Numbered from the stretch's first letter, positions 113 through 9,757 are shown. The stretch: DNA of 29,627 nt from Candidatus Sigynarchaeum calidifontis (GCA_030587475.2 JAUQYZ020000154.1:1-29627); one strand, 5' to 3'. Made by a program: numbers and translations. The notes: a model not told the origin generated them from the letters alone.

Positions 113-970
113 TCAGCGAGGGGATCCCTGGAGCACCTCGCCATCCGGCATCGTGATCTTCTCCTCGGCCCGCACGAGCTTGTCGGTCCGGGGGAAATGT
201 TTCGCTGCCCATTCGTCTTGGAGCAGCTTTTTCCTCGCGTGAACCGATTTCATAATAATGAATATCGCGATGCCGCCACATGCCCCAAAGAGGAGGCCTA
301 AAAATCCGTCAACCGTCAAGTAACTGAGGAGCCCGTAACCCTCGAAGGAGAGCACGAGCGCCAGGAACGTGAGGAGCCAGAGGGCAATCACGGCCTTTCG
401 CGAGAAAATGCGCTTGAAGGTGGGACTTATATCCCAAAGAGGCGTGTCCTTTCTTTCCGAATGGCTCGCTTTCAAGTAAATGCCATGCGCAGCAGCAAGG
501 CTGGCCTGGCACACGAAACCAGCGCCGGTCGTGTACAAGACGATGAAGAGAAAGGTCTCCTCCTCAGCGAGGGCGACATTCGGGTAATAGAAATAGACGA
601 GGTAGATAAAGGCGATGACCATCACGGCGAAGGTTATCAAGGCTTTCCTCGAGGGCGCCACGAGAGCACTGGCCATGATAAATGCCGTGCCCAGGAACCC
701 GAGCAAGATAAGTTCCCCGAGCCAATGCATGACATTCCCGTAGCGGAACACGCCGATGAACAGTTCCTTGACGACCGTGTCCCAGAACAACAAGCCGAAC
801 GACGCGAGCACCATGAAAGCGAAGGCGCGGAGGCCCTTCACGACGATGCAGTTATAGCTCTCACCGGGCGCGTGTGCTTTCTCGGCCCAGGACGTGGTGA
901 TCACGACGCCCATCATTATGACGAGGGCCATGACCTGGCCAAAAATATGCGTGGCAAGGATCATCCCCAT
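113..970 (-). CDS. Polytopic integral membrane protein of unknown function (about 7-8 TM segments)
   Basis: Long ORF with repeated hydrophobic stretches; ATG at 970 overlaps the upstream TGA (TGATG coupling); the ORF track uses TTG at 973. Confidence 0.8.
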   Translation of the reverse strand: MGMILATHIFGQVMALVIMMGVVITTSWAEKAHAPGESYNCIVVKGLRAFAFMVLASFGLLFWDTVVKELFIGVFRYGNVMHWLGELILLGFLGTAFIMASALVAPSRKALITFAVMVIAFIYLVYFYYPNVALAEEETFLFIVLYTTGAGFVCQASLAAAHGIYLKASHSERKDTPLWDISPTFKRIFSRKAVIALWLLTFLALVLSFEGYGLLSYLTVDGFLGLLFGACGGIAIFIIMKSVHARKKLLQDEWAAKHFPRTDKLVRAEEKITMPDGEVLQGSPR

Positions 971-2256
971 CAAGGCACACCCCCGAGTAATAGATCTGCC
1001 TTCGAGCCGTTTCGCACGAGCGTGAACGATTCGATGAGACTATTTTCCTCCGAACGCGTTTCCACGACGAGCCTATCGATCTCGAATCGTACCGTCGTGT
1101 AACTCGGGCCGACATTAATGAACTGGCTTTCTGGCACGATGTTGAATCCGGTATCTTGCATCCCGCCGCCGCCAGCTAGGCACAGGTAGGTATGGCCGTT
1201 CATTAGAAATCTTTCATAATGATGATCGTGGCCGTACATGACTAGGGAAACATTATATGATTCAACAATGGGCCGGATGCGAGCGATAAAATCTGGATGA
1301 TTTCCGAGCGAGGAGAATAAGCTCCGATGAAACACGAGGATCCGGAACGCCTTGTCTTGTCCATTCTTGAGAGTCTGGTTGAGCCAACCCGATTGATTCA
1401 TCAACGCGATGTTTTCTTGACTTCCCTCGCCGATTTCTCCCACGACGAACTGAACGTTGGACCAATTGAAGGAATAGAAGAAATGATTTGCCCACGGCCC
1501 TGTTTCATGCGAAAATCCGAAATATTTCAGGTACATAAAGTTTTCCATGTTACTGTAGTGGCCAGTCGCGGAATCAAACGTGGAATCGTGGTTGCCGATG
1601 GAGGGAACGGTTGGATAATGACGCATCCAGCTTTCGCTCTCACGCATGAACAAGTTCCAGTTGGCCTGGTTATCTGGTTCTTGGGCGAGGTCGCCCAATA
1701 CCGAGACAAAAGAGAGGTCCTCACGAGCGGCAATCGCGTTGGCAATTCGCTCGTAATGCCCGATGCCCCACATTTGCTGCGAGTCGGAGAAAAATGCCGC
1801 CGTGAACGGCAGCGGCGTGGCGGGGGCGGTCCAGAATGACCCGACCGGGCTGATATATGGGATTGTCAGGTTGACAGATTCCACGCGATAGTAGTACTTC
1901 GTGTTGGGTTGAAGGTTCACGAGCTTGGCTCGATACAAGGTCGGGAACATGGCAGAAGCTGTCACGTTGGTCGCGTTCACGACGAGCGTGCTTGGAGATT
2001 GGCCGAGCAATATTGAAGCATTCATGCTTTGGCTGTTCTCCCAGGTGATGTACATTTCTCGGGATGGATCCAACCCGTTAAAATGCGTGTAGGGATGCTT
2101 GTCGAACGGCACGGCATCCATGGCGAGCTGCGTGGTGAGGGCATACAAGAAGATGGGCGAAGCGACGACGAATATCACGCCGATGTTTCGGAGCTGGAAT
2201 AGAGTCATTTCGCGGGGGCTCCTGTGCTTCGTGCGGGATCCGATGTGCGGGAGCAT
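970..2256 (-). CDS. Membrane-anchored calcineurin-like metallophosphoesterase (purple acid phosphatase-like, with FN3-like N-terminal domain)
   Basis: N-terminal TM helix; FN3-like LQPNTKYYYRV; metal motifs FSDSQ, GDLAQ, GNHD, FHRS, GHDHHYER. Start uncertain (2256, 2208 or 2268). Confidence 0.85.
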   Translation of the reverse strand: MLPHIGSRTKHRSPREMTLFQLRNIGVIFVVASPIFLYALTTQLAMDAVPFDKHPYTHFNGLDPSREMYITWENSQSMNASILLGQSPSTLVVNATNVTASAMFPTLYRAKLVNLQPNTKYYYRVESVNLTIPYISPVGSFWTAPATPLPFTAAFFSDSQQMWGIGHYERIANAIAAREDLSFVSVLGDLAQEPDNQANWNLFMRESESWMRHYPTVPSIGNHDSTFDSATGHYSNMENFMYLKYFGFSHETGPWANHFFYSFNWSNVQFVVGEIGEGSQENIALMNQSGWLNQTLKNGQDKAFRILVFHRSLFSSLGNHPDFIARIRPIVESYNVSLVMYGHDHHYERFLMNGHTYLCLAGGGGMQDTGFNIVPESQFINVGPSYTTVRFEIDRLVVETRSEENSLIESFTLVRNGSKADLLLGGVP

Positions 2257-2476: not shown

Positions 2477-3106
2477 TTAACAGCGGAGGAGATGGCCCAA
2501 CTTTGTTTTTTTCGTCTGTAGATAAAAAACATTAGAAGGATTTGCAGGAACTTCGAGGGGGATTCTTTCAACCACGGAAATGCCGGAAGCGATCAAGGAC
2601 TCCACTTTCTTCGGGTTGTTGGTGAGCAGATTGATGCGTAGTACACCGAGATCCTTGAGAATACTCGCTGCTATTTTGTAATCGCGTGAATCCGCCGGGA
2701 AACCCATGATCTCGTTGGCTTCAACCGTGTCGTATCCCTCTTCCTGTAGTTTATAAGCGCGAAGCTTGTTCAGAAGGCCAATGCCGCGCCCTTCTTGCCG
2801 CAAGTAAATGAAAACGCCACGATCGCTATGTGCCAATAATTCTAATGCCCGCTCGAGCTGTGGCCCACAATCACATTGGAGTGATTTAAAAACGTCACCT
2901 GTCAAGCATTCTGAATGGATGCGAACAAGCACGGGTGGATCCGCCCTTGATAATTCCCCTCGCGTCAAGACAACGTGTGTCTCGCCGTCAGCGACGCTGG
3001 TGTAGGCGAGGAGCATGAAATCCCCGTACCTCGTTTTAAAGTGGGTGACCACTTCCCGCCGAACCGAAACATCCGAGGTGATCCCATCGGCATTCTCCAC
3101 GGACAT
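2477..3106 (-). CDS. ribA: GTP cyclohydrolase II (bacterial-type, stand-alone)
   Basis: VRIHSECLTGDVF, CDCGPQL (three Zn-ligating Cys), YLRQEGRGIGLLNKLRAY, LLTNNPKK, YLQTKKTKLGH; ATG at 3106 (alternative TTG at 3112). Confidence 0.95.
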   Translation of the reverse strand: MSVENADGITSDVSVRREVVTHFKTRYGDFMLLAYTSVADGETHVVLTRGELSRADPPVLVRIHSECLTGDVFKSLQCDCGPQLERALELLAHSDRGVFIYLRQEGRGIGLLNKLRAYKLQEEGYDTVEANEIMGFPADSRDYKIAASILKDLGVLRINLLTNNPKKVESLIASGISVVERIPLEVPANPSNVFYLQTKKTKLGHLLRC

Positions 3107-3293
3107 GTTCAAGACCGATTCTCGTATCCTTCAAGTTTCCATTTATTGAAACGAGCAATAACAACCTTGTTCAAGAGAGACGAATGGCTCCCATCTAGAG
3201 TGTAGACAGAACGTGCTTTACTGTTATATCGAGGAGATGCGTCGAAATCGTACACCGGCGAAGATCCGGGCAATAATACTAGAATCACATGTT

Positions 3294-3308
3294 GAAAAGG
3301 ATTTTTAG
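3294..3308 (+). promoter_or_regulatory. Putative BRE/TATA promoter of the amidohydrolase-cofG-cofH operon
   Basis: GAAAAGG-ATTTTTAG ending about 21 nt upstream of GTG 3330, consistent with a near-leaderless archaeal transcript. Confidence 0.45.
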
Positions 3309-3329
3309 TTCCAGAACACTTACGCACCC

Positions 3330-4502
3330 GTGAATTCCGGCGGAATATTTGTCAAGTATGCCTTGCTTGGCAATGAAATGGAGCTGGCGGAGGACGTCTA
3401 TCTAGAATGGGACGATACGGGGCGATTTAGTCGTATCGAGCCACACAACCGTTGTAGCGAGGTCCGGGGCGCTCTTGCAATTCCAGCCTTTATCAACGCG
3501 CACACGCATGTCGCGGATGCCTTCGCAAAGGATCTCGGCATAAACATGCCGCTGGCAGCCGTGGTTGCACCACCGGATGGCTTGAAGCACCGATTGCTTC
3601 GGAGCACGCCGAAAGAACGGATCCAACAAGCTATCGCTGATAGCTTGAAAATGATGCGTGCCGGCGGCATTCGAGCATTTGCCGACTTTCGGGAAGGCGG
3701 GGTCTTGGGCGTGTCTTTGCTCGATGAAGTGTTGGATCCGTCCCTCCCTCGCAGCCACGTGTTCGCTCGATGGATTGAGAAAATCGACGAATTAACCACG
3801 ATCACGTCCAAAATTGCTGGTATCGGCATTTCATCTCCAAATGAATATACCTTGGAAGCCCTTGAAGAGGTTGCGCGGTATTGCAAGCTTCATGGTCTTC
3901 TCCTCGCTAGCCACGTGTCAGAAACGCCTCAAGCACGCCAGAAATCGATACAGAACCGAGGTATAACCGACACGGAACTCGTCTTGCAATATGGCGTCCA
4001 CACCATTCTCGTACATTTGACATGCGCTTCTGCTCGAGATATAGACCGTGCCATCGATGCGGGGGCAGGTATTGTGCTTTGCCCGAGATCCAACGCGATG
4101 CTCGCAGGAATGACACCCCCGATAGATCGACTCGTGGAGGCCAATAGCACCTTTGCACTAGGAACCGATAACGTGATGGTGTGTTCCCCCGATGCATGGC
4201 AAGAAATCCAATTCGCGATAAAACTTTTCAGAATACAGGCACCAGATAAACCAATCAATCCGGCATTCTGGTTTCGCACGGTCACTTTGCATCCTGCCAA
4301 GGCACTCCGGATCGACCAGTTCTGCGGTTCCTTATCGCTGGGCAAGCAAGCAGACATGTGCCTCGTGGCTATCCAGACCTGGAATCTAAAACCGGCACCG
4401 GCAGTTGTTGCAAACGTGCTTCTTCGTGGGGGCTGGGGCGACGTGGAGAGCGTTTATTATGGGGGAATCCCCGTGTGGAGGCAGGCCAGTCCGTGTCGCT
4501 AG
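3330..4502 (+). CDS. Metal-dependent amidohydrolase/deaminase (cytosine/guanine/SAH deaminase superfamily; archaeal VAPPDGLKHRLL subtype)
   Basis: PAFINAHTH (HxH), DFREGG, SHVSET (HxxE), LVHL, LCPRSN, LGTDN; 3' end overlaps the cofG start. Confidence 0.88.
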   Translation: MNSGGIFVKYALLGNEMELAEDVYLEWDDTGRFSRIEPHNRCSEVRGALAIPAFINAHTHVADAFAKDLGINMPLAAVVAPPDGLKHRLLRSTPKERIQQAIADSLKMMRAGGIRAFADFREGGVLGVSLLDEVLDPSLPRSHVFARWIEKIDELTTITSKIAGIGISSPNEYTLEALEEVARYCKLHGLLLASHVSETPQARQKSIQNRGITDTELVLQYGVHTILVHLTCASARDIDRAIDAGAGIVLCPRSNAMLAGMTPPIDRLVEANSTFALGTDNVMVCSPDAWQEIQFAIKLFRIQAPDKPINPAFWFRTVTLHPAKALRIDQFCGSLSLGKQADMCLVAIQTWNLKPAPAVVANVLLRGGWGDVESVYYGGIPVWRQASPCR

Positions 4503-5587
4503 AAGATCTAAAGGCTTGGTACAAGCAGCCGATGCATGACTTGATGAACCGCGCGGATCGGGCACGCCAGATGCACTTTGGCCAAAAAGTGACGTATTCC
4601 CGGAACTATAGTCTTGCCGTGTCCAATCATTGCCGAAACAATTGCGGGTACTGCGCGTTCCGGGCTCGAACCCCGGGCGTTTCCCCGAAGTTACTCATGC
4701 CGGTGGATATCGAGGCCGGCCTAACACGAGCACGTGATTCAAGATGTTGGGAAGTCCTTTTCATAACGGGCGAGGGCGGTTCGACAGATCCCGAAATTGA
4801 TGCCTTTCTCAAGACATCCGGATGGAAATGCATCGAAGAGTATTATTCATGGGCACTATCCGCGGCAATCTCGAAAGGGTTGCTCCCGCACAGCAATTTT
4901 GGACTTGTTAGCCGCGCGTGGCTCGCGCATTTCAAGCAATTGAATGCGAGCATGGGGTTGATGCTCGAAACCGTTTCCACATCGCTTTGCGATCGGGGCA
5001 TGCCCCACGAATTCAGCCCGGGGAAGCATCCCTCGTTAAGATTGCAATTTTTGGAATGGGCGGGGGAATTGCAAATACCCATCACCACGGGGCTCTTGAT
5101 TGGTGTTGGAGAGACCGTATCGAGCCGCCTGGAGAGCTTGCTGGCCATTTGGCACCTGCACCAGCGCTTTGGTCATATTCAAGAGGTAATACTCCAGAAT
5201 TTCGTACCGCATCAAGGAACCCCGCTAGAAAACTACCCGCCCCCACCGACAGAGGACTTGTTACGACTCGTTGCGGTTTCACGATTACTCTTCGGGAAAA
5301 GTGTTTCTATTCAAGTCGCCCCGAATCTCAACCCGGCGAGCATTCTCGATCTTGTACATGCCGGCGCAAACGACCTGGGAGGCATCAGTCCTGTAACGAT
5401 CGATCACGTGAATCCGAAAGAACCTTGGCCAAGTGCCGAGCATCTCGCAAAAATCCTATCCGAGGACGGGATTGATCTCGTCCCTCGCTTGCCCGTGTAC
5501 GATGCATTCATCTCTGACAAGTTTTTATCCCCGGCGATTTTACGCAACATTACAAGGATACAGGAATCGATGCGCGATGGATTCTGA
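4475..5587 (+). CDS. cofG: FO synthase subunit CofG (radical SAM)
   Basis: VTYSRN, CRNNCGYC (CxxxCxxC), GLLPHSN, NASMGLMLE, TTGLLIGVGET, GHIQEVILQNF, GANDLGGISPVTIDHVNP..PWP, RLPVY. Start GTG 4475 or 4493; the 4358 extension is unlikely. Confidence 0.93.
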   Translation: MEAGQSVSLEDLKAWYKQPMHDLMNRADRARQMHFGQKVTYSRNYSLAVSNHCRNNCGYCAFRARTPGVSPKLLMPVDIEAGLTRARDSRCWEVLFITGEGGSTDPEIDAFLKTSGWKCIEEYYSWALSAAISKGLLPHSNFGLVSRAWLAHFKQLNASMGLMLETVSTSLCDRGMPHEFSPGKHPSLRLQFLEWAGELQIPITTGLLIGVGETVSSRLESLLAIWHLHQRFGHIQEVILQNFVPHQGTPLENYPPPPTEDLLRLVAVSRLLFGKSVSIQVAPNLNPASILDLVHAGANDLGGISPVTIDHVNPKEPWPSAEHLAKILSEDGIDLVPRLPVYDAFISDKFLSPAILRNITRIQESMRDGF

Positions 5588-6695
5588 ATACACCTTTACG
5601 AGTTCTATCATCCACGACATCATCGCGGCTCACCAGCGGGGAGTGGAATTATCCGCCAAGGATGCCCTCACGCTCGCCGGTGCAGAGGGTGATGATCTGC
5701 GAGGGATTATGGCCTATGCGAATGACTTGTGCGTGGCTTCCCACGGAAAGCGGGTAAGCTTCGTGGTCAATCGCAATATCAACTTCACGAACGTGTGCAC
5801 CTTGCAATGCCATTTTTGCGCGTTTTCGGTTCCACCATGCGATCCACGGTCGTACTTGCTCTCGTTCGACGAGATCGCACGGAAGGTGATCGAGGCAAAG
5901 GCAAACCACTGCACCGAAGTGTGTATTCAAGGTGGTATCCACCCAGAAATCGATCTTGATTATTACATCGGTATCCTCCGTACCGTGAAGGAAATAGCCC
6001 CGGAGATTCATGTTCACGCGTTTTCTCCCCAAGAAATATATAATATGCTCCAGCGCTCTTCCCTTCCTTTGAATTCCCTCTTGAAGATGTTACAAGAAGC
6101 TGGCCTTGGTTCCATTCCGGGCACTGCGGCAGAGATACTCGTCGACGGGATCAGGCGAAAGCTTTGTCCCCGCAAGATCCAGACGGCACAATGGCGATCC
6201 ATCATCGTTGCGGCTCACCGGCTGGGAATTCCCACCACGAGCACCATCATGTTCGGTTCCATCGAGAATTGGGATGATCGATGTGCCCACCTCAATGAAA
6301 TTCGCAACATCCAGAAAGAAACAAAGGGATTTACTGAGTTCGTTCCACTCGTCTTTATTCCACCGTCTAATGCTTTCTGGAAGGGACAAGGCGTTGTAAC
6401 AACGAGCAAATCGGAGATCCTGAAGATCTATGCGATCGCGCGCATTTTTTTCCACGATACCATACCGAACATACAGACATCATGGGTGAAGCTCGGCCCT
6501 CCCCTCGCGCGAGAGACCCTGGATTGTGGCGTGAACGACTTTGGAGGCACCCTCATGGAGGAAAACATATCGAAAAGCGCCGGTGCAAAACACGGGGAGT
6601 TCCTCTCGCCAGATCAGATCAAGGAGTTGATCCGGGCAGCTGGTAAAGTACCCGTGCAGCGAACGACTGTATATGAAATGATTCAATCGTTTTGA
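5577..6695 (+). CDS. cofH: FO synthase subunit CofH (radical SAM)
   Basis: FVVNRNINFTNVCTLQCHFCAFS, TEVCIQGGIHP, IHVHAFSPQE, SIPGTAAEILVD, GFTEFVPL, NIQTSWVKLG, NDFGGTLMEENIS; ATG 5577 overlaps the cofG end, and adjacency to cofG favours CofH over MqnC/MqnE. Confidence 0.93.
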   Translation: MDSEYTFTSSIIHDIIAAHQRGVELSAKDALTLAGAEGDDLRGIMAYANDLCVASHGKRVSFVVNRNINFTNVCTLQCHFCAFSVPPCDPRSYLLSFDEIARKVIEAKANHCTEVCIQGGIHPEIDLDYYIGILRTVKEIAPEIHVHAFSPQEIYNMLQRSSLPLNSLLKMLQEAGLGSIPGTAAEILVDGIRRKLCPRKIQTAQWRSIIVAAHRLGIPTTSTIMFGSIENWDDRCAHLNEIRNIQKETKGFTEFVPLVFIPPSNAFWKGQGVVTTSKSEILKIYAIARIFFHDTIPNIQTSWVKLGPPLARETLDCGVNDFGGTLMEENISKSAGAKHGEFLSPDQIKELIRAAGKVPVQRTTVYEMIQSF

Positions 6696-6704
6696 TACTT
6701 CATT

Positions 6705-7418
6705 TCAAGGCGGGAGATCGTTTTTGCGTCTATATCGAAGAATCACGCAGTTATCGCGCGTCTCCACGTCATGCAATTGGAAAGTAGGCGCGTCTTTCAC
6801 GAGCCCGAAACCAGCACCCCCGACCAAGGTCGTCGCTGCTTGACCGCCTACAAGAACCGGCGCGATGCACAATCGGATCTCGTCGATCAAGCCAGCAGCG
6901 ACCATGCTCCAATTCAGTGACCCCCCGCCTTCAAGAAGGATCCTTCGAATACCTCGTTGCATCAAGTGATCAAGCATTCGGCGCACGTCGACGGGGGGAT
7001 TTTCGTTCACGATGATGATCTCCGCGCCACGTGCTTCCAGCGCGCGTTTACGTGCTGGATCAATTTGTTTTGTCGCGCAAATGATCGTGGGATAGAGAGG
7101 ATCATCGACCGGGAGCACGCGTGCGGTCGGGGGAGTGCGCCCCGTGCTGTCCACCACGACGCGGATGAGGGGGCTTGTTTTCGTGTAATATTTGACACGC
7201 AACGACGGGTCGTCGTGGAGAATCGTGTTGACGCCTACCATGATCGCGTCAACGGAGCTGCGGATTGCGTGCACTTGTCGCCAATCCGCATCGTCGGAGA
7301 ACTGGCTGTCGCCTGCGGTTGTACTGATCTTGGCATCGATAGACATCGCAGCGTTTAGGAGAATATAAGGCCGGTCCTGAGGGAGGGGGGAGAGCGGTTT
7401 CCATTCATCCACGGGCAT
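6705..7418 (-). CDS. arfC: 2,5-diamino-6-ribosylamino-4(3H)-pyrimidinone 5'-phosphate reductase (stand-alone RibD C-terminal domain, ArfC/Rib7 type)
   Basis: RPYILLNAAMSIDAKI, DAIMVGVNTILHDDPSL, RVVVDS.GRTP, ILLEGGGSLNWS, GLIDEI..IAPVLVGG; no N-terminal HAE/PCxxC deaminase domain. Confidence 0.88.
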   Translation of the reverse strand: MPVDEWKPLSPLPQDRPYILLNAAMSIDAKISTTAGDSQFSDDADWRQVHAIRSSVDAIMVGVNTILHDDPSLRVKYYTKTSPLIRVVVDSTGRTPPTARVLPVDDPLYPTIICATKQIDPARKRALEARGAEIIIVNENPPVDVRRMLDHLMQRGIRRILLEGGGSLNWSMVAAGLIDEIRLCIAPVLVGGQAATTLVGGAGFGLVKDAPTFQLHDVETRDNCVILRYRRKNDLPP

Positions 7419-7665: not shown

Positions 7666-8472
7666 GTGCCGGCATCCCTTGCGTTCTTGGAGCATAACCT
7701 GGCGGAGATCCGAGGATTGAACCAGCGTGGTGGCCGCATGCTCTCGATCATCGACTTGATATCTCGCGAGACCATCACCATCGACCTCGCGGCGTACTTG
7801 CTCGTGAAGATCCGCGGCGGTGCTTCCTTCTTGTGTTGTTCGATGCAAGGCGGCGTCGGGAAGACCACGCTGATGGGGGCCTTGCTTGGCCTTCTCCCGC
7901 CATCAGAGGAGATCGTAACCGTGGCCTCGGAAGCGGATCTCGGTATATTGCAGCGGCTAACAACGGATGGCAAACGGCGGAGTCTCGTGGTGCACGAGAT
8001 TGGATCGGGCTCATGGTATGGCTATCTTTGGGGGAAGCCCGTGCTTGATTATGTCCGTCTGAAGAATCCGACGACCCGGATCGTGTCCAACATCCACGCA
8101 GACGCGTTGGAAGATGTGACAGCGCAATTCATTTCGTTTGGGGGTACTGCAGCGGAAATGCTGGAGTTCGACCTCGTTTTGTTCATCACGCTGGGAAAGG
8201 GGAATGTCGGGGGCGAGCGCAGGCGCATCGTGAACGATATACTCGAAATCACGAGACAGCTAGACCATCGAGCCAATCGCGAAAAACCAGCACATTTCAG
8301 TAAATATTTCAGTAAATTGGATATCCAAGGCATCGGCTCGAAGTATGACCATGAGATTCGTGCCGCGAGGGAATTTCTTCAAGGATTGCTCGCGGAAAAC
8401 ACGATGTTGGTGGAGGAGGTAGCTGCTCGCGTCGCTGCATTCCACGATAGACTCGATAGAGTCGATCACTAG
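7666..8472 (+). CDS. P-loop ATPase, stand-alone catalytic domain of VirB11/CpaF/FlaI (type II/IV secretion ATPase) type
   Basis: Walker A-like SMQGGVGKTTLMGALL, Walker B-like LVVHEIG, His-box-like SNIHAD, C-terminal RRIV..I.E strand. Confidence 0.65.
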   Translation: MPASLAFLEHNLAEIRGLNQRGGRMLSIIDLISRETITIDLAAYLLVKIRGGASFLCCSMQGGVGKTTLMGALLGLLPPSEEIVTVASEADLGILQRLTTDGKRRSLVVHEIGSGSWYGYLWGKPVLDYVRLKNPTTRIVSNIHADALEDVTAQFISFGGTAAEMLEFDLVLFITLGKGNVGGERRRIVNDILEITRQLDHRANREKPAHFSKYFSKLDIQGIGSKYDHEIRAAREFLQGLLAENTMLVEEVAARVAAFHDRLDRVDH

Positions 8473-8505: not shown

Positions 8506-9108
8506 TTATTCCGAATTATCCGCCGTCGCTTGTTCCTTCTCCGCTGACGACCTGCTACCGCCCTTCGCCTTGGCTTTTTTCTTGGAGGGGCGCTTGTGAG
8601 CACCACGGATCTCGTCATTTTCCTTCTCGGCCGCCTGGATCTTGCCCAATAAATCGTTGATCCGCTGGCTATTGTCTTTGAAGTTCAGCAAGCCCTCGCA
8701 CTGGGGACAGCGGAAATCCATCTCGGTTGCCTTGTCGAAAATCACGCGGGTGCAACCAGCGTCGCACGTGTACCACATGTTCCCTTGCTCGTATTCGAGC
8801 AAGTTTCTCCAGTTCTCTATCTGTTTCTGGTTCCGTTCGATGAGAATGTTTTCGTAACCGACGAAGTTCTGGCGGAAAAAAAACACAATCCAACCATTAT
8901 GCCTATCTCTTGTCCGGCGGTAGGTAACGAGATTATAATCAAGCAATTTGTAGAGATTCTTCCGCGTGGTGTTGATATCCTCGCCCAGCTTCTCTGCGAG
9001 TTCCTGGTCGGTGATCTCCTTCCCTTCGATTTTTTCCAGCTCCAGGGCGAGTCTTACACATACTTCGCCACCGATGAAGAACACGAATTTCGTGAGCAAC
9101 TCGTCCAA
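8506..9108 (-). CDS. tfe: Transcription factor E alpha (TFE/TFIIE-alpha)
   Basis: Winged helix ITDQELAEKLG...TRKNLYKL...VTYRRTRD..NGW; Zn ribbon YTCDAGC...FDKATEMDFRCPQC..LL...DNS; TTG start. Confidence 0.93.
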   Translation of the reverse strand: MDELLTKFVFFIGGEVCVRLALELEKIEGKEITDQELAEKLGEDINTTRKNLYKLLDYNLVTYRRTRDRHNGWIVFFFRQNFVGYENILIERNQKQIENWRNLLEYEQGNMWYTCDAGCTRVIFDKATEMDFRCPQCEGLLNFKDNSQRINDLLGKIQAAEKENDEIRGAHKRPSKKKAKAKGGSRSSAEKEQATADNSE

Positions 9109-9244: not shown

Positions 9245-9757
9245 TCAACGCGTCTTGGCAACCTTCTTGGTATCCCCCGATGTTCCCTTGTCGTGGTTGT
9301 CTTTTTCTTTTTCTGCAAGCCACTGCTCGAACATGAGTTCAGTCTTCCCTTCGCCAATATCATGCAACCAACCCCACCAGTTCATCAGCCGCGTCGTTTT
9401 TTCCGAGGGAACCTTCTCCGCGAACATCGCACGGTATGCTTTTGACTCGAGCGGGATGGGCGGCTCCTGGTTCTCTTCCTTCTCCCTCGCAAGAGCCCGC
9501 TCCATTCTTTCTAAATAAAGATGAGCTTTTTCCTCATCCACCCTCTGCTCGGGCGTGAGCTGCGAAAGCCTGAACTCGTGCTCGATGTTCCCGATATCAT
9601 CCCACGAAAACCCCATCACGTCGACAGCATACTGAAAAAAGTTGAAGTCCTTGAATCGTTCCTTCGTATCTGCCCGCCGGATCTCGATGAACGACTCCTC
9701 GTGGCAATTAAAAACCGCTTCGAGCCCGTATTCTACATCACCCTGCTTGATCATCAC
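9245..9757 (-). CDS. Hypothetical protein; may extend to ATG 9892 through an in-frame TAG
   Basis: 170-aa charged, protein-like ORF with no recognised motif; upstream in-frame TAG at 9803-9805. Confidence 0.55.
   Translation of the reverse strand: MMIKQGDVEYGLEAVFNCHEESFIEIRRADTKERFKDFNFFQYAVDVMGFSWDDIGNIEHEFRLSQLTPEQRVDEEKAHLYLERMERALAREKEENQEPPIPLESKAYRAMFAEKVPSEKTTRLMNWWGWLHDIGEGKTELMFEQWLAEKEKDNHDKGTSGDTKKVAKTR

Follow-up and report, generated by a model that had tools for sequence, protein, structure and literature searches.

The window analysed here, a stretch of 29,627 nt from Candidatus Sigynarchaeum calidifontis (GCA_030587475.2 JAUQYZ020000154.1), contains a cluster of five genes at 2477-7418. 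The cluster comprises ribA, arfC, cofG and cofH, together with a gene encoding an amidohydrolase, here named P0001. Sequence and genomic context indicate that P0001 is likely to be the deaminase of 2,5-diamino-6-ribitylamino-4(3H)-pyrimidinone 5'-phosphate, acting in the biosynthesis of the deazaflavin FO. A preliminary description of the window had arrived at the same assignment. It is supported by the linkage of the family to arfC, by the absence of a RibD N-terminal deaminase domain from the genome sequence, and by the low score of P0001 against the model of the 5'-deoxyadenosine deaminase DadD. The deaminase hypothesis had already been proposed in 2010 and 2017, and the present result is a well-supported rediscovery. 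By its sequence, P0001 is a divergent new member of this previously proposed candidate deaminase family, located in a cluster variant linked to RibA.

A candidate pyrimidine deaminase

CofH requires a deaminated pyrimidine. A deaminase is therefore chemically required, and within the cluster no gene other than that of the amidohydrolase qualifies as a candidate. Together, the five genes would constitute a self-contained route from guanosine triphosphate (GTP) to FO. RibA would open GTP to 2,5-diamino-6-ribosylamino-4(3H)-pyrimidinone 5'-phosphate, and ArfC would reduce the ribosyl side chain to ribityl. The amidohydrolase would then exchange the 2-amino group for an oxo group, yielding 5-amino-6-ribitylaminouracil 5'-phosphate. 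After a further phosphatase has stripped the phosphate, CofH and CofG would condense the dephosphorylated product with tyrosine to form FO. The substrate given here for the amidohydrolase is a presumed one, and the order of the steps is adopted from the pathway of Methanocaldococcus jannaschii, which the archaeon would presumably follow (PMC5397151, PMC8256712).

The active site was assessed in an alignment of 22 homologues from Asgard archaea, Thermoproteota, methanogens and haloarchaea. This alignment contains 31 invariant columns, all of which are kept in P0001. They include H58, H60, H195, E198, H229 and D280, the complete residue set of the cog0402 deaminases. The HxH, HxxE and GTD signature noted in the preliminary description is borne out, with H58/H60, H195/E198 and G278-T279-D280 being invariant in the 22 members. 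Further invariants are specific to the subfamily, namely K86 (in the PPDGLKHRLL region), DFRE (119-122), R147, CPRxN (251-255), GTDN (278-281), E292 and R366. P0001 would act as a mononuclear-metal deaminase, in which the HxH motif, the histidine of strand β5 and the aspartate of strand β8 would provide the metal ligands, and the glutamate of HxxE and the histidine of strand β6 would serve as proton shuttles. The residues K86, R121, R147, R253 and R366 may bind the ribityl phosphate.

The AlphaFold2 model of P0001 (pLDDT 93.2, pTM 0.93) forms a (β/α)8 barrel, and strand assignment by DSSP places the catalytic residues at the C-terminal ends of barrel strands 1, 5, 6 and 8. Foldseek matched the model to 4gbd, 3lnp and 4dyk (E ~1e-27, TM 0.85). 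The matches comprise zinc-dependent adenosine, methylthioadenosine/S-adenosylhomocysteine (MTA/SAH), guanine and isocytosine deaminases as well as atrazine chlorohydrolase, at a TM score of ~0.85 and an identity of <=22%. No solved structure of any subfamily member was found in these comparisons. P0001 shares the common fold (TM 0.81-0.88) and the full set of metal-binding and catalytic residues with the cog0402 deaminases, such as the MTA/SAH deaminases TM0936 and 4f0r, the adenosine deaminases 4gbd and 4dyk, guanine deaminase and the isocytosine deaminase Vcz. It differs from them in its low identity (again <=22%), in being 45-80 residues shorter and in its genomic context, and its segment after barrel strand 2 (DFREGG, R147) fails to align.

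In profile searches, P0001 matched NF005552/PRK07213 ('chlorohydrolase') with 214 bits, covering model positions 11-375 of 382, and the next model reached 87 bits. Family members embedded in the operons of other archaea also match NF005552, at 272-318 bits. Its Pfam matches are limited to PF01979 and PF07969; PF00383, the zinc-binding domain of CMP/dCMP deaminases, was not matched.

The gene neighbourhood of the family was compared in 80 loci from other species, with one genome per species and neighbours annotated with hidden Markov models built for this analysis. A conserved linkage emerged. In 54 of the 80 loci, arfC lies directly downstream of the amidohydrolase gene and mostly overlaps it. 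This arrangement was found in 34 of 36 loci from Nitrososphaeria, in all 11 from Asgard archaea, and in four of six from Bathyarchaeia or other Thermoproteota. Directly upstream, arfA is present in 42/80 loci; these 42 also show the arfC linkage and represent operons without cofG and cofH. The genes ribB, ribH or ribC occur upstream in 39/80 loci, and cofG/cofH occur downstream in 15/80. Linkage of any kind to arfC, arfA, rib or cofGH genes amounts to 58/80. In the archaeal rib operons examined, the amidohydrolase family is the only conserved gene without an assigned role.

Two architectures recur. The first, ribB-(ribH)-ribC-arfA-X-arfC, in which X denotes the amidohydrolase gene, is present in Nitrososphaeria, Bathyarchaeia and a Jordarchaeia genome. 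It is exemplified by locus L010 (ribB-ribH-ribC-arfA-X-arfC), where the genes overlap and cofGH are absent. The second, X-arfC-cofG-cofH, is found in Thor-, Hermod- and Promethearchaeota. In the window, the amidohydrolase gene is coupled to cofG-cofH, and ribA and arfC belong to the same cluster. A metagenomic contig (L015:5361-10358) displays a third operon variant with co-directional Flavin_Reduct, amidohydrolase, RibD_C, cofG and cofH genes, and its amidohydrolase branches beside Bathyarchaeia sequences in the tree. Three bacterial homologues (L017, L035 and L060; a Chloroflexi-named protein family, a Trueperaceae and a Spirochaetales metagenome-assembled genome) have no riboflavin or FO genes as neighbours. 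The Chloroflexi-type homologue adjoins genes for an ATP-binding cassette (ABC) sugar transporter and a sugar kinase. The bacterial homologues sit on long branches and may act on another substrate.

The genome to which the window belongs is 89% complete, and no RibD-type deaminase was found in it. The preliminary description had set a canonical RibD deaminase elsewhere in the genome against its own assignment; the only protein with the cytidine deaminase (CDA) fold (PF00383) proved to be of the ComEB/dCMP-deaminase type, scoring 28.8 bits against TIGR00326 (cut-off 156). The single RibD_C protein of the genome is the ArfC of the window, which has no deaminase half.

On a wider scale, of the 329 genomes from one methanogen phylum, 315 contain a match to NF005552 above the cut-off. 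At E<=1e-45, the model was matched in 4/4 archaeal and 0/10 bacterial control genomes. Among 41 relatives from the same order, the amidohydrolase is present in 25 and occurs in each of the 23 CofH-positive genomes, and 16 relatives have neither the amidohydrolase nor cofH. Two amidohydrolase-negative relatives that were checked are also devoid of ArfC, which tracks the amidohydrolase. The match of the RibD model is confined to the reductase half in six relatives, and in five of these the matching gene adjoins the amidohydrolase gene.

Weighing the assignment

Several observations weigh against the assignment of P0001 as the pyrimidine deaminase. Riboflavin-gene linkage was found in none of the 20 euryarchaeal loci, which hold the methanogen and haloarchaeal members, and arfC of the window is not adjacent to the amidohydrolase gene. 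With 214 bits, P0001 falls below the curated equivalog cut-off of NF005552 (294 bits). Operon-embedded members from Thorarchaeota (272 bits) and from Thermoproteota (287 bits) also lie below this cut-off, and one Nitrosopumilaceae member (318 bits) lies above it; the cut-off looks tuned to euryarchaeal sequences, which would make it a property of the model and not of the biology. In a quick tree, P0001 and its Sigynarchaeum homologue form a long-branch pair outside the main Asgard clade, and the identity of P0001 to all family members other than this homologue is ~30-36%. At 89% completeness, absences from the genome are not proof. The literature searched yielded neither a biochemical nor a genetic test of a member of the amidohydrolase family. 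Finally, the exact tracking of amidohydrolase and cofH within the Asgard order would, by itself, also suit a role tied to the radical S-adenosylmethionine (SAM) enzymes.

Such a role was the alternative named in the preliminary description, in which the amidohydrolase would deaminate 5'-deoxyadenosine (or MTA/SAH), an inhibitory by-product of CofG and CofH, in the manner of DadD. The complete co-occurrence with cofH among the order-level relatives is in line with it, as are the translational coupling to cofG and cofH in the window and the presence of MTA/SAH and adenosine deaminases among the nearest solved structures. Furthermore, no other cog0402 deaminase or DadD-like paralogue was found in the window's genome. 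This function is nevertheless quite unlikely, as P0001 scores poorly against the models for DadD (NF005557, 49.6 bits, cut-off 522) and for MTA/SAH deaminase (NF012037, 21.8 bits, cut-off 779), and in the 42 operons with arfA the gene lies between arfA and arfC with cofGH not nearby. The two families also coexist in one genome: a Methanobacteriaceae genome encodes a member of NF005552 (434 bits) and, in a separate gene, a DadD-like paralogue (NF004701 652 bits, NF005557 439 bits). Sulfolobus acidocaldarius matches NF005552 at E<=1e-45, with CofH, CofD and CofE unmatched. Archaeal genomes encode other radical-SAM enzymes besides CofG and CofH. Since 16 relatives lack the amidohydrolase though such enzymes are expected in them, general salvage of 5'-deoxyadenosine looks unlikely as well.

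P0001 might instead deaminate the pyrimidine at another stage, accepting either the ribosyl intermediate before ArfC, as in the bacterial order, or the dephosphorylated ribityl compound. The reaction order is not readable from gene order, arfC is separated from the amidohydrolase gene in the window, RibA is of the bacterial type, and the order with reduction first has its basis in M. jannaschii only (PMC5397151, PMC8256712). Against this, the reductase scores above the equivalog cut-off of the archaeal model TIGR01508, an enzyme type for which reduction of the diamino compound is described as the first step, and the invariant K86, R121, R147, R253 and R366 would suit a phosphorylated substrate. 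Deamination at one of these other stages is unlikely.

The position directly after arfA in 42/80 loci could also be read as a replacement of ArfB, with the amidohydrolase acting as a formamide hydrolase, or as a ring-opening hydrolase of another kind, on the product of GTP cyclohydrolase III. This reading is highly improbable. The product of RibA needs no deformylation, and the use of RibA in the cluster argues against a role of the family as ArfB substitute. In the window's genome as on the Sigynarchaeum contigs, the gene is found together with ribA, and no match to ArfA/GTP cyclohydrolase III was found in the window's genome. No formamide intermediate would arise here, yet the amidohydrolase is kept and coupled to cofG. 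Its active site, of the HxxE type, matches that of the cog0402 deaminases, and known deformylases are unrelated to P0001. One of them, BrbF, carries the annotation of a creatininase-type amidohydrolase and has no sequence similarity to ArfB (PMC9478397).

Cluster layout and the FO/F420 branch

The gene calls were checked by Pfam and NCBIfam profile searches of the window proteins, which located all five genes of the cluster (Table 1). They are contiguous, as the preliminary description had stated.

Table 1. Features of the FO gene cluster, the window and the same genome, with profile scores (cut-offs in brackets).
Feature	Position	Strand	Evidence or remark
ribA, GTP cyclohydrolase II	2477..3112	-	PF00925 224 bits; NF001591 261 bits (cut-off 148); TIGR00505 252 bits
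ribA/amidohydrolase divergent intergenic region	3113..3329		presumed site of both promoters
Deaminase-type amidohydrolase (P0001, 390 aa)	3330..4502	+	PF01979 107 bits; best NCBIfam NF005552 214 bits
cofG, radical-SAM FO synthase subunit	4475..5587	+	NF004884 375 bits (cut-off 209); TIGR03550 351 bits
cofH, radical-SAM 5-amino-6-(D-ribitylamino)uracil:tyrosine 4-hydroxyphenyl transferase	5577..6695	+	TIGR03551 451 bits (cut-off 374); PF19288 CofH_C
arfC, archaeal-type reductase-only RibD_C	6705..7418	-	TIGR01508 199.8 bits (cut-off 186); PF01872 167 bits
TFE-alpha gene	8506-9108		window gene beyond arfC
Helix-turn-helix-fused CTP-dependent riboflavin kinase (RbkR type)	C62:22876-23256		same genome
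CofD	C59:22435-23157		same genome
CofE	C178:15759-16424		same genome

The gene ribA, which represents the single PF00925 match in the whole genome, likely starts at ATG 3106, judging by its N-terminus. It diverges from the amidohydrolase gene across a shared gap of ~217 bp, in agreement with the preliminary description. This intergenic region contains one weak palindrome only, and no motif in common with the corresponding Sigynarchaeum region was found. A shared operator between ribA and the amidohydrolase gene was rejected on these grounds, the single palindrome being weak and not conserved in Sigynarchaeum.

The overlaps of amidohydrolase gene and cofG and of cofG and cofH, reported in the preliminary description, are real and shorter than described. 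They had been read too long because the starts of the longest open reading frames (ORFs) were taken. Start codons were chosen from their positions and from the gene lengths in Sigynarchaeum, where the CofG homologue has 370 aa. With a start of cofG at GTG 4475 or 4493, the overlap with the amidohydrolase stop (4502) is 28 or 10 nt rather than 145 nt, and a start of cofH at ATG 5577 results in an overlap of 11 nt with cofG. Short as they are, these overlaps still point to translational coupling of the amidohydrolase gene, cofG and cofH. The gene arfC is convergent with cofH and lies 9 nt beyond its end.

Two metagenomic contigs of Ca. Sigynarchaeum type show the same layout, with ribA divergent from amidohydrolase-cofG-cofH and arfC convergent; their amidohydrolase is 62% identical. 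Because of this conservation, the arrangement is not a product of chance. The window stems from an Asgard archaeon, and among the named homologues of its amidohydrolase the closest belongs to Ca. Sigynarchaeum springense.

The surroundings of the cluster are more variable. Genes of the ubiquitin system (ubiquitin-like, ThiF E1, UQ_con E2, JAB) adjoin the Sigynarchaeum FO cluster in conserved synteny (L008:2883-6118). Several loci from Thor-, Hermod- and Promethearchaeota share this synteny, with the ubiquitin-system genes lying upstream of the amidohydrolase gene by ~1-5 kb; the window itself has none of these genes. The ORFs flanking the cluster in the window (113-973, -; 7666-8472, +; 9245-9757, -) have no Pfam matches, and 7666-8472 bears only a weak partial likeness to FlaI/TadA-type ATPases (26 bits). 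The metallophosphoesterase encoded by a neighbouring gene (970-2268, -) resembles purple acid phosphatases. Its hydrophobic N-terminal anchor and its numerous NxS/T sequons make it probably an extracellular glycoprotein. It was considered as the pathway phosphatase and rejected, given its N-terminal membrane anchor, its many N-glycosylation sequons and its absence from the Sigynarchaeum cluster.

The genome also encodes a riboflavin kinase, CofD and CofE (Table 1). No match to RibB (PF00926) or to lumazine/riboflavin synthase (PF00885) was found in the window's genome (89% complete), so that the pyrimidine branch apparently serves FO and F420 only. This gene content suggests riboflavin auxotrophy, with the branch kept for FO/F420. 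The pattern extends to the 41 order-level relatives, of which five match PF00885 and five match PF00926, compared with the 25 that possess the amidohydrolase. In much of this Asgard order, the pyrimidine branch seems to serve FO/F420 only.

For the first step of the pathway, the order-level relatives (G330-G369) present a different picture. Neither GTP cyclohydrolase II or III nor RibB or RibH was recognised in 17 relatives that are positive for both amidohydrolase and cofH (85-100% complete). In most order-level relatives, the amidohydrolase, arfC and cofGH come without any GTP cyclohydrolase II or III that could be recognised, which would imply an unrecognised first enzyme. An MptA/FolE2-type cyclohydrolase (PF02649, 203 bits) adjoins the operon in 12 loci and is divergent in 11 of these, lying ~100-300 bp upstream of the amidohydrolase gene on the opposite strand. 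The window's genome encodes MptA/FolE2 as well, as do genomes that lack the amidohydrolase operon. An in-situ replacement of RibA by MptA/FolE2 was rejected, as the complementary pattern is unsupported: the window's genome has both enzymes, and amidohydrolase-negative genomes have FolE2 too. An involvement of MptA/FolE2 in the synthesis of FO is no more than a lead. Tentatively, and with rather more doubt than confidence, riboflavin synthesis may have been lost in this Asgard lineage and RibA, ArfC, the amidohydrolase, CofG and CofH kept as a dedicated FO/F420 path, the unrecognised first enzyme of the relatives possibly being of the MptA/FolE2 type.

Relation to known systems and significance

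A literature search confirmed that the deaminase function had been proposed before. Rodionova et al. (2017), citing a book chapter from 2010, describe a candidate archaeal pyrimidine deaminase, 'PyrD', which had been proposed because it often clusters and co-occurs with riboflavin genes; the prediction was untested at that time (PMC5397151). Pfeiffer et al. (2021) listed HVO_2483 together with MJ0699 as candidate deaminase and called for experimental confirmation (PMC8305020). A pathway review from 2026 names no archaeal deaminase (PMC13151069), and no archaeal enzyme assayed for the pyrimidine deamination step was found in the literature searched.

The reaction proposed for 'PyrD' (SEED role 'Pyrimidine deaminase archaeal predicted') is the same as that proposed here, and the evidence is of the same kind, i.e., clustering and co-occurrence with riboflavin genes. 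NF005552 matches the genomes of M. jannaschii and Haloferax volcanii, two species not represented in the 80 loci compared above, at E<=1e-45. Judged by the published description, the genome-level profile matches and its standing as the sole unassigned operon gene, the family of P0001 would correspond to the published MJ0699/HVO_2483 family. P0001 departs from 'PyrD' in its divergent sequence (214 bits) and in its linkage to ribA and cofGH in place of arfA and arfC.

The closest parallel in layout is the amidohydrolase-arfC-cofG-cofH operon of Thor-, Hermod- and Promethearchaeota (L025, L026, L038, L042, L051-L053 and L069), which contains the same four genes and has the same presumed product, FO. 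In the window, however, arfC closes the cluster and is encoded on the opposite strand, and the divergent upstream gene is ribA instead of the MptA/FolE2-type cyclohydrolase gene of the operon loci. In addition, the amidohydrolase of the window is not nested within that Asgard clade in the tree.

The RibD N-terminal domain and fungal Rib2, both zinc deaminases of the CDA fold, catalyse the same pathway step as proposed for the amidohydrolase. Fungal Rib2 acts on the reduced (ribityl) substrate (PMC8256712). The fold of P0001 is unrelated to that of these enzymes, and the amidohydrolase would therefore represent a non-orthologous replacement.

In the archaeal biosynthesis of riboflavin and F420, the pyrimidine deaminase is one of the steps still unproven, as is the phosphatase. 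The window offers a clean test object: its five contiguous genes should turn GTP into FO when expressed in a heterologous host, the amidohydrolase is the sole catalyst there without an assigned role, and no ArfA/ArfB chemistry confounds the RibA-linked cluster. To the earlier proposals, the window adds a linkage to RibA that speaks against a role as ArfB substitute, and the retention of the candidate deaminase where apparently only the deazaflavin, and not riboflavin, is made.

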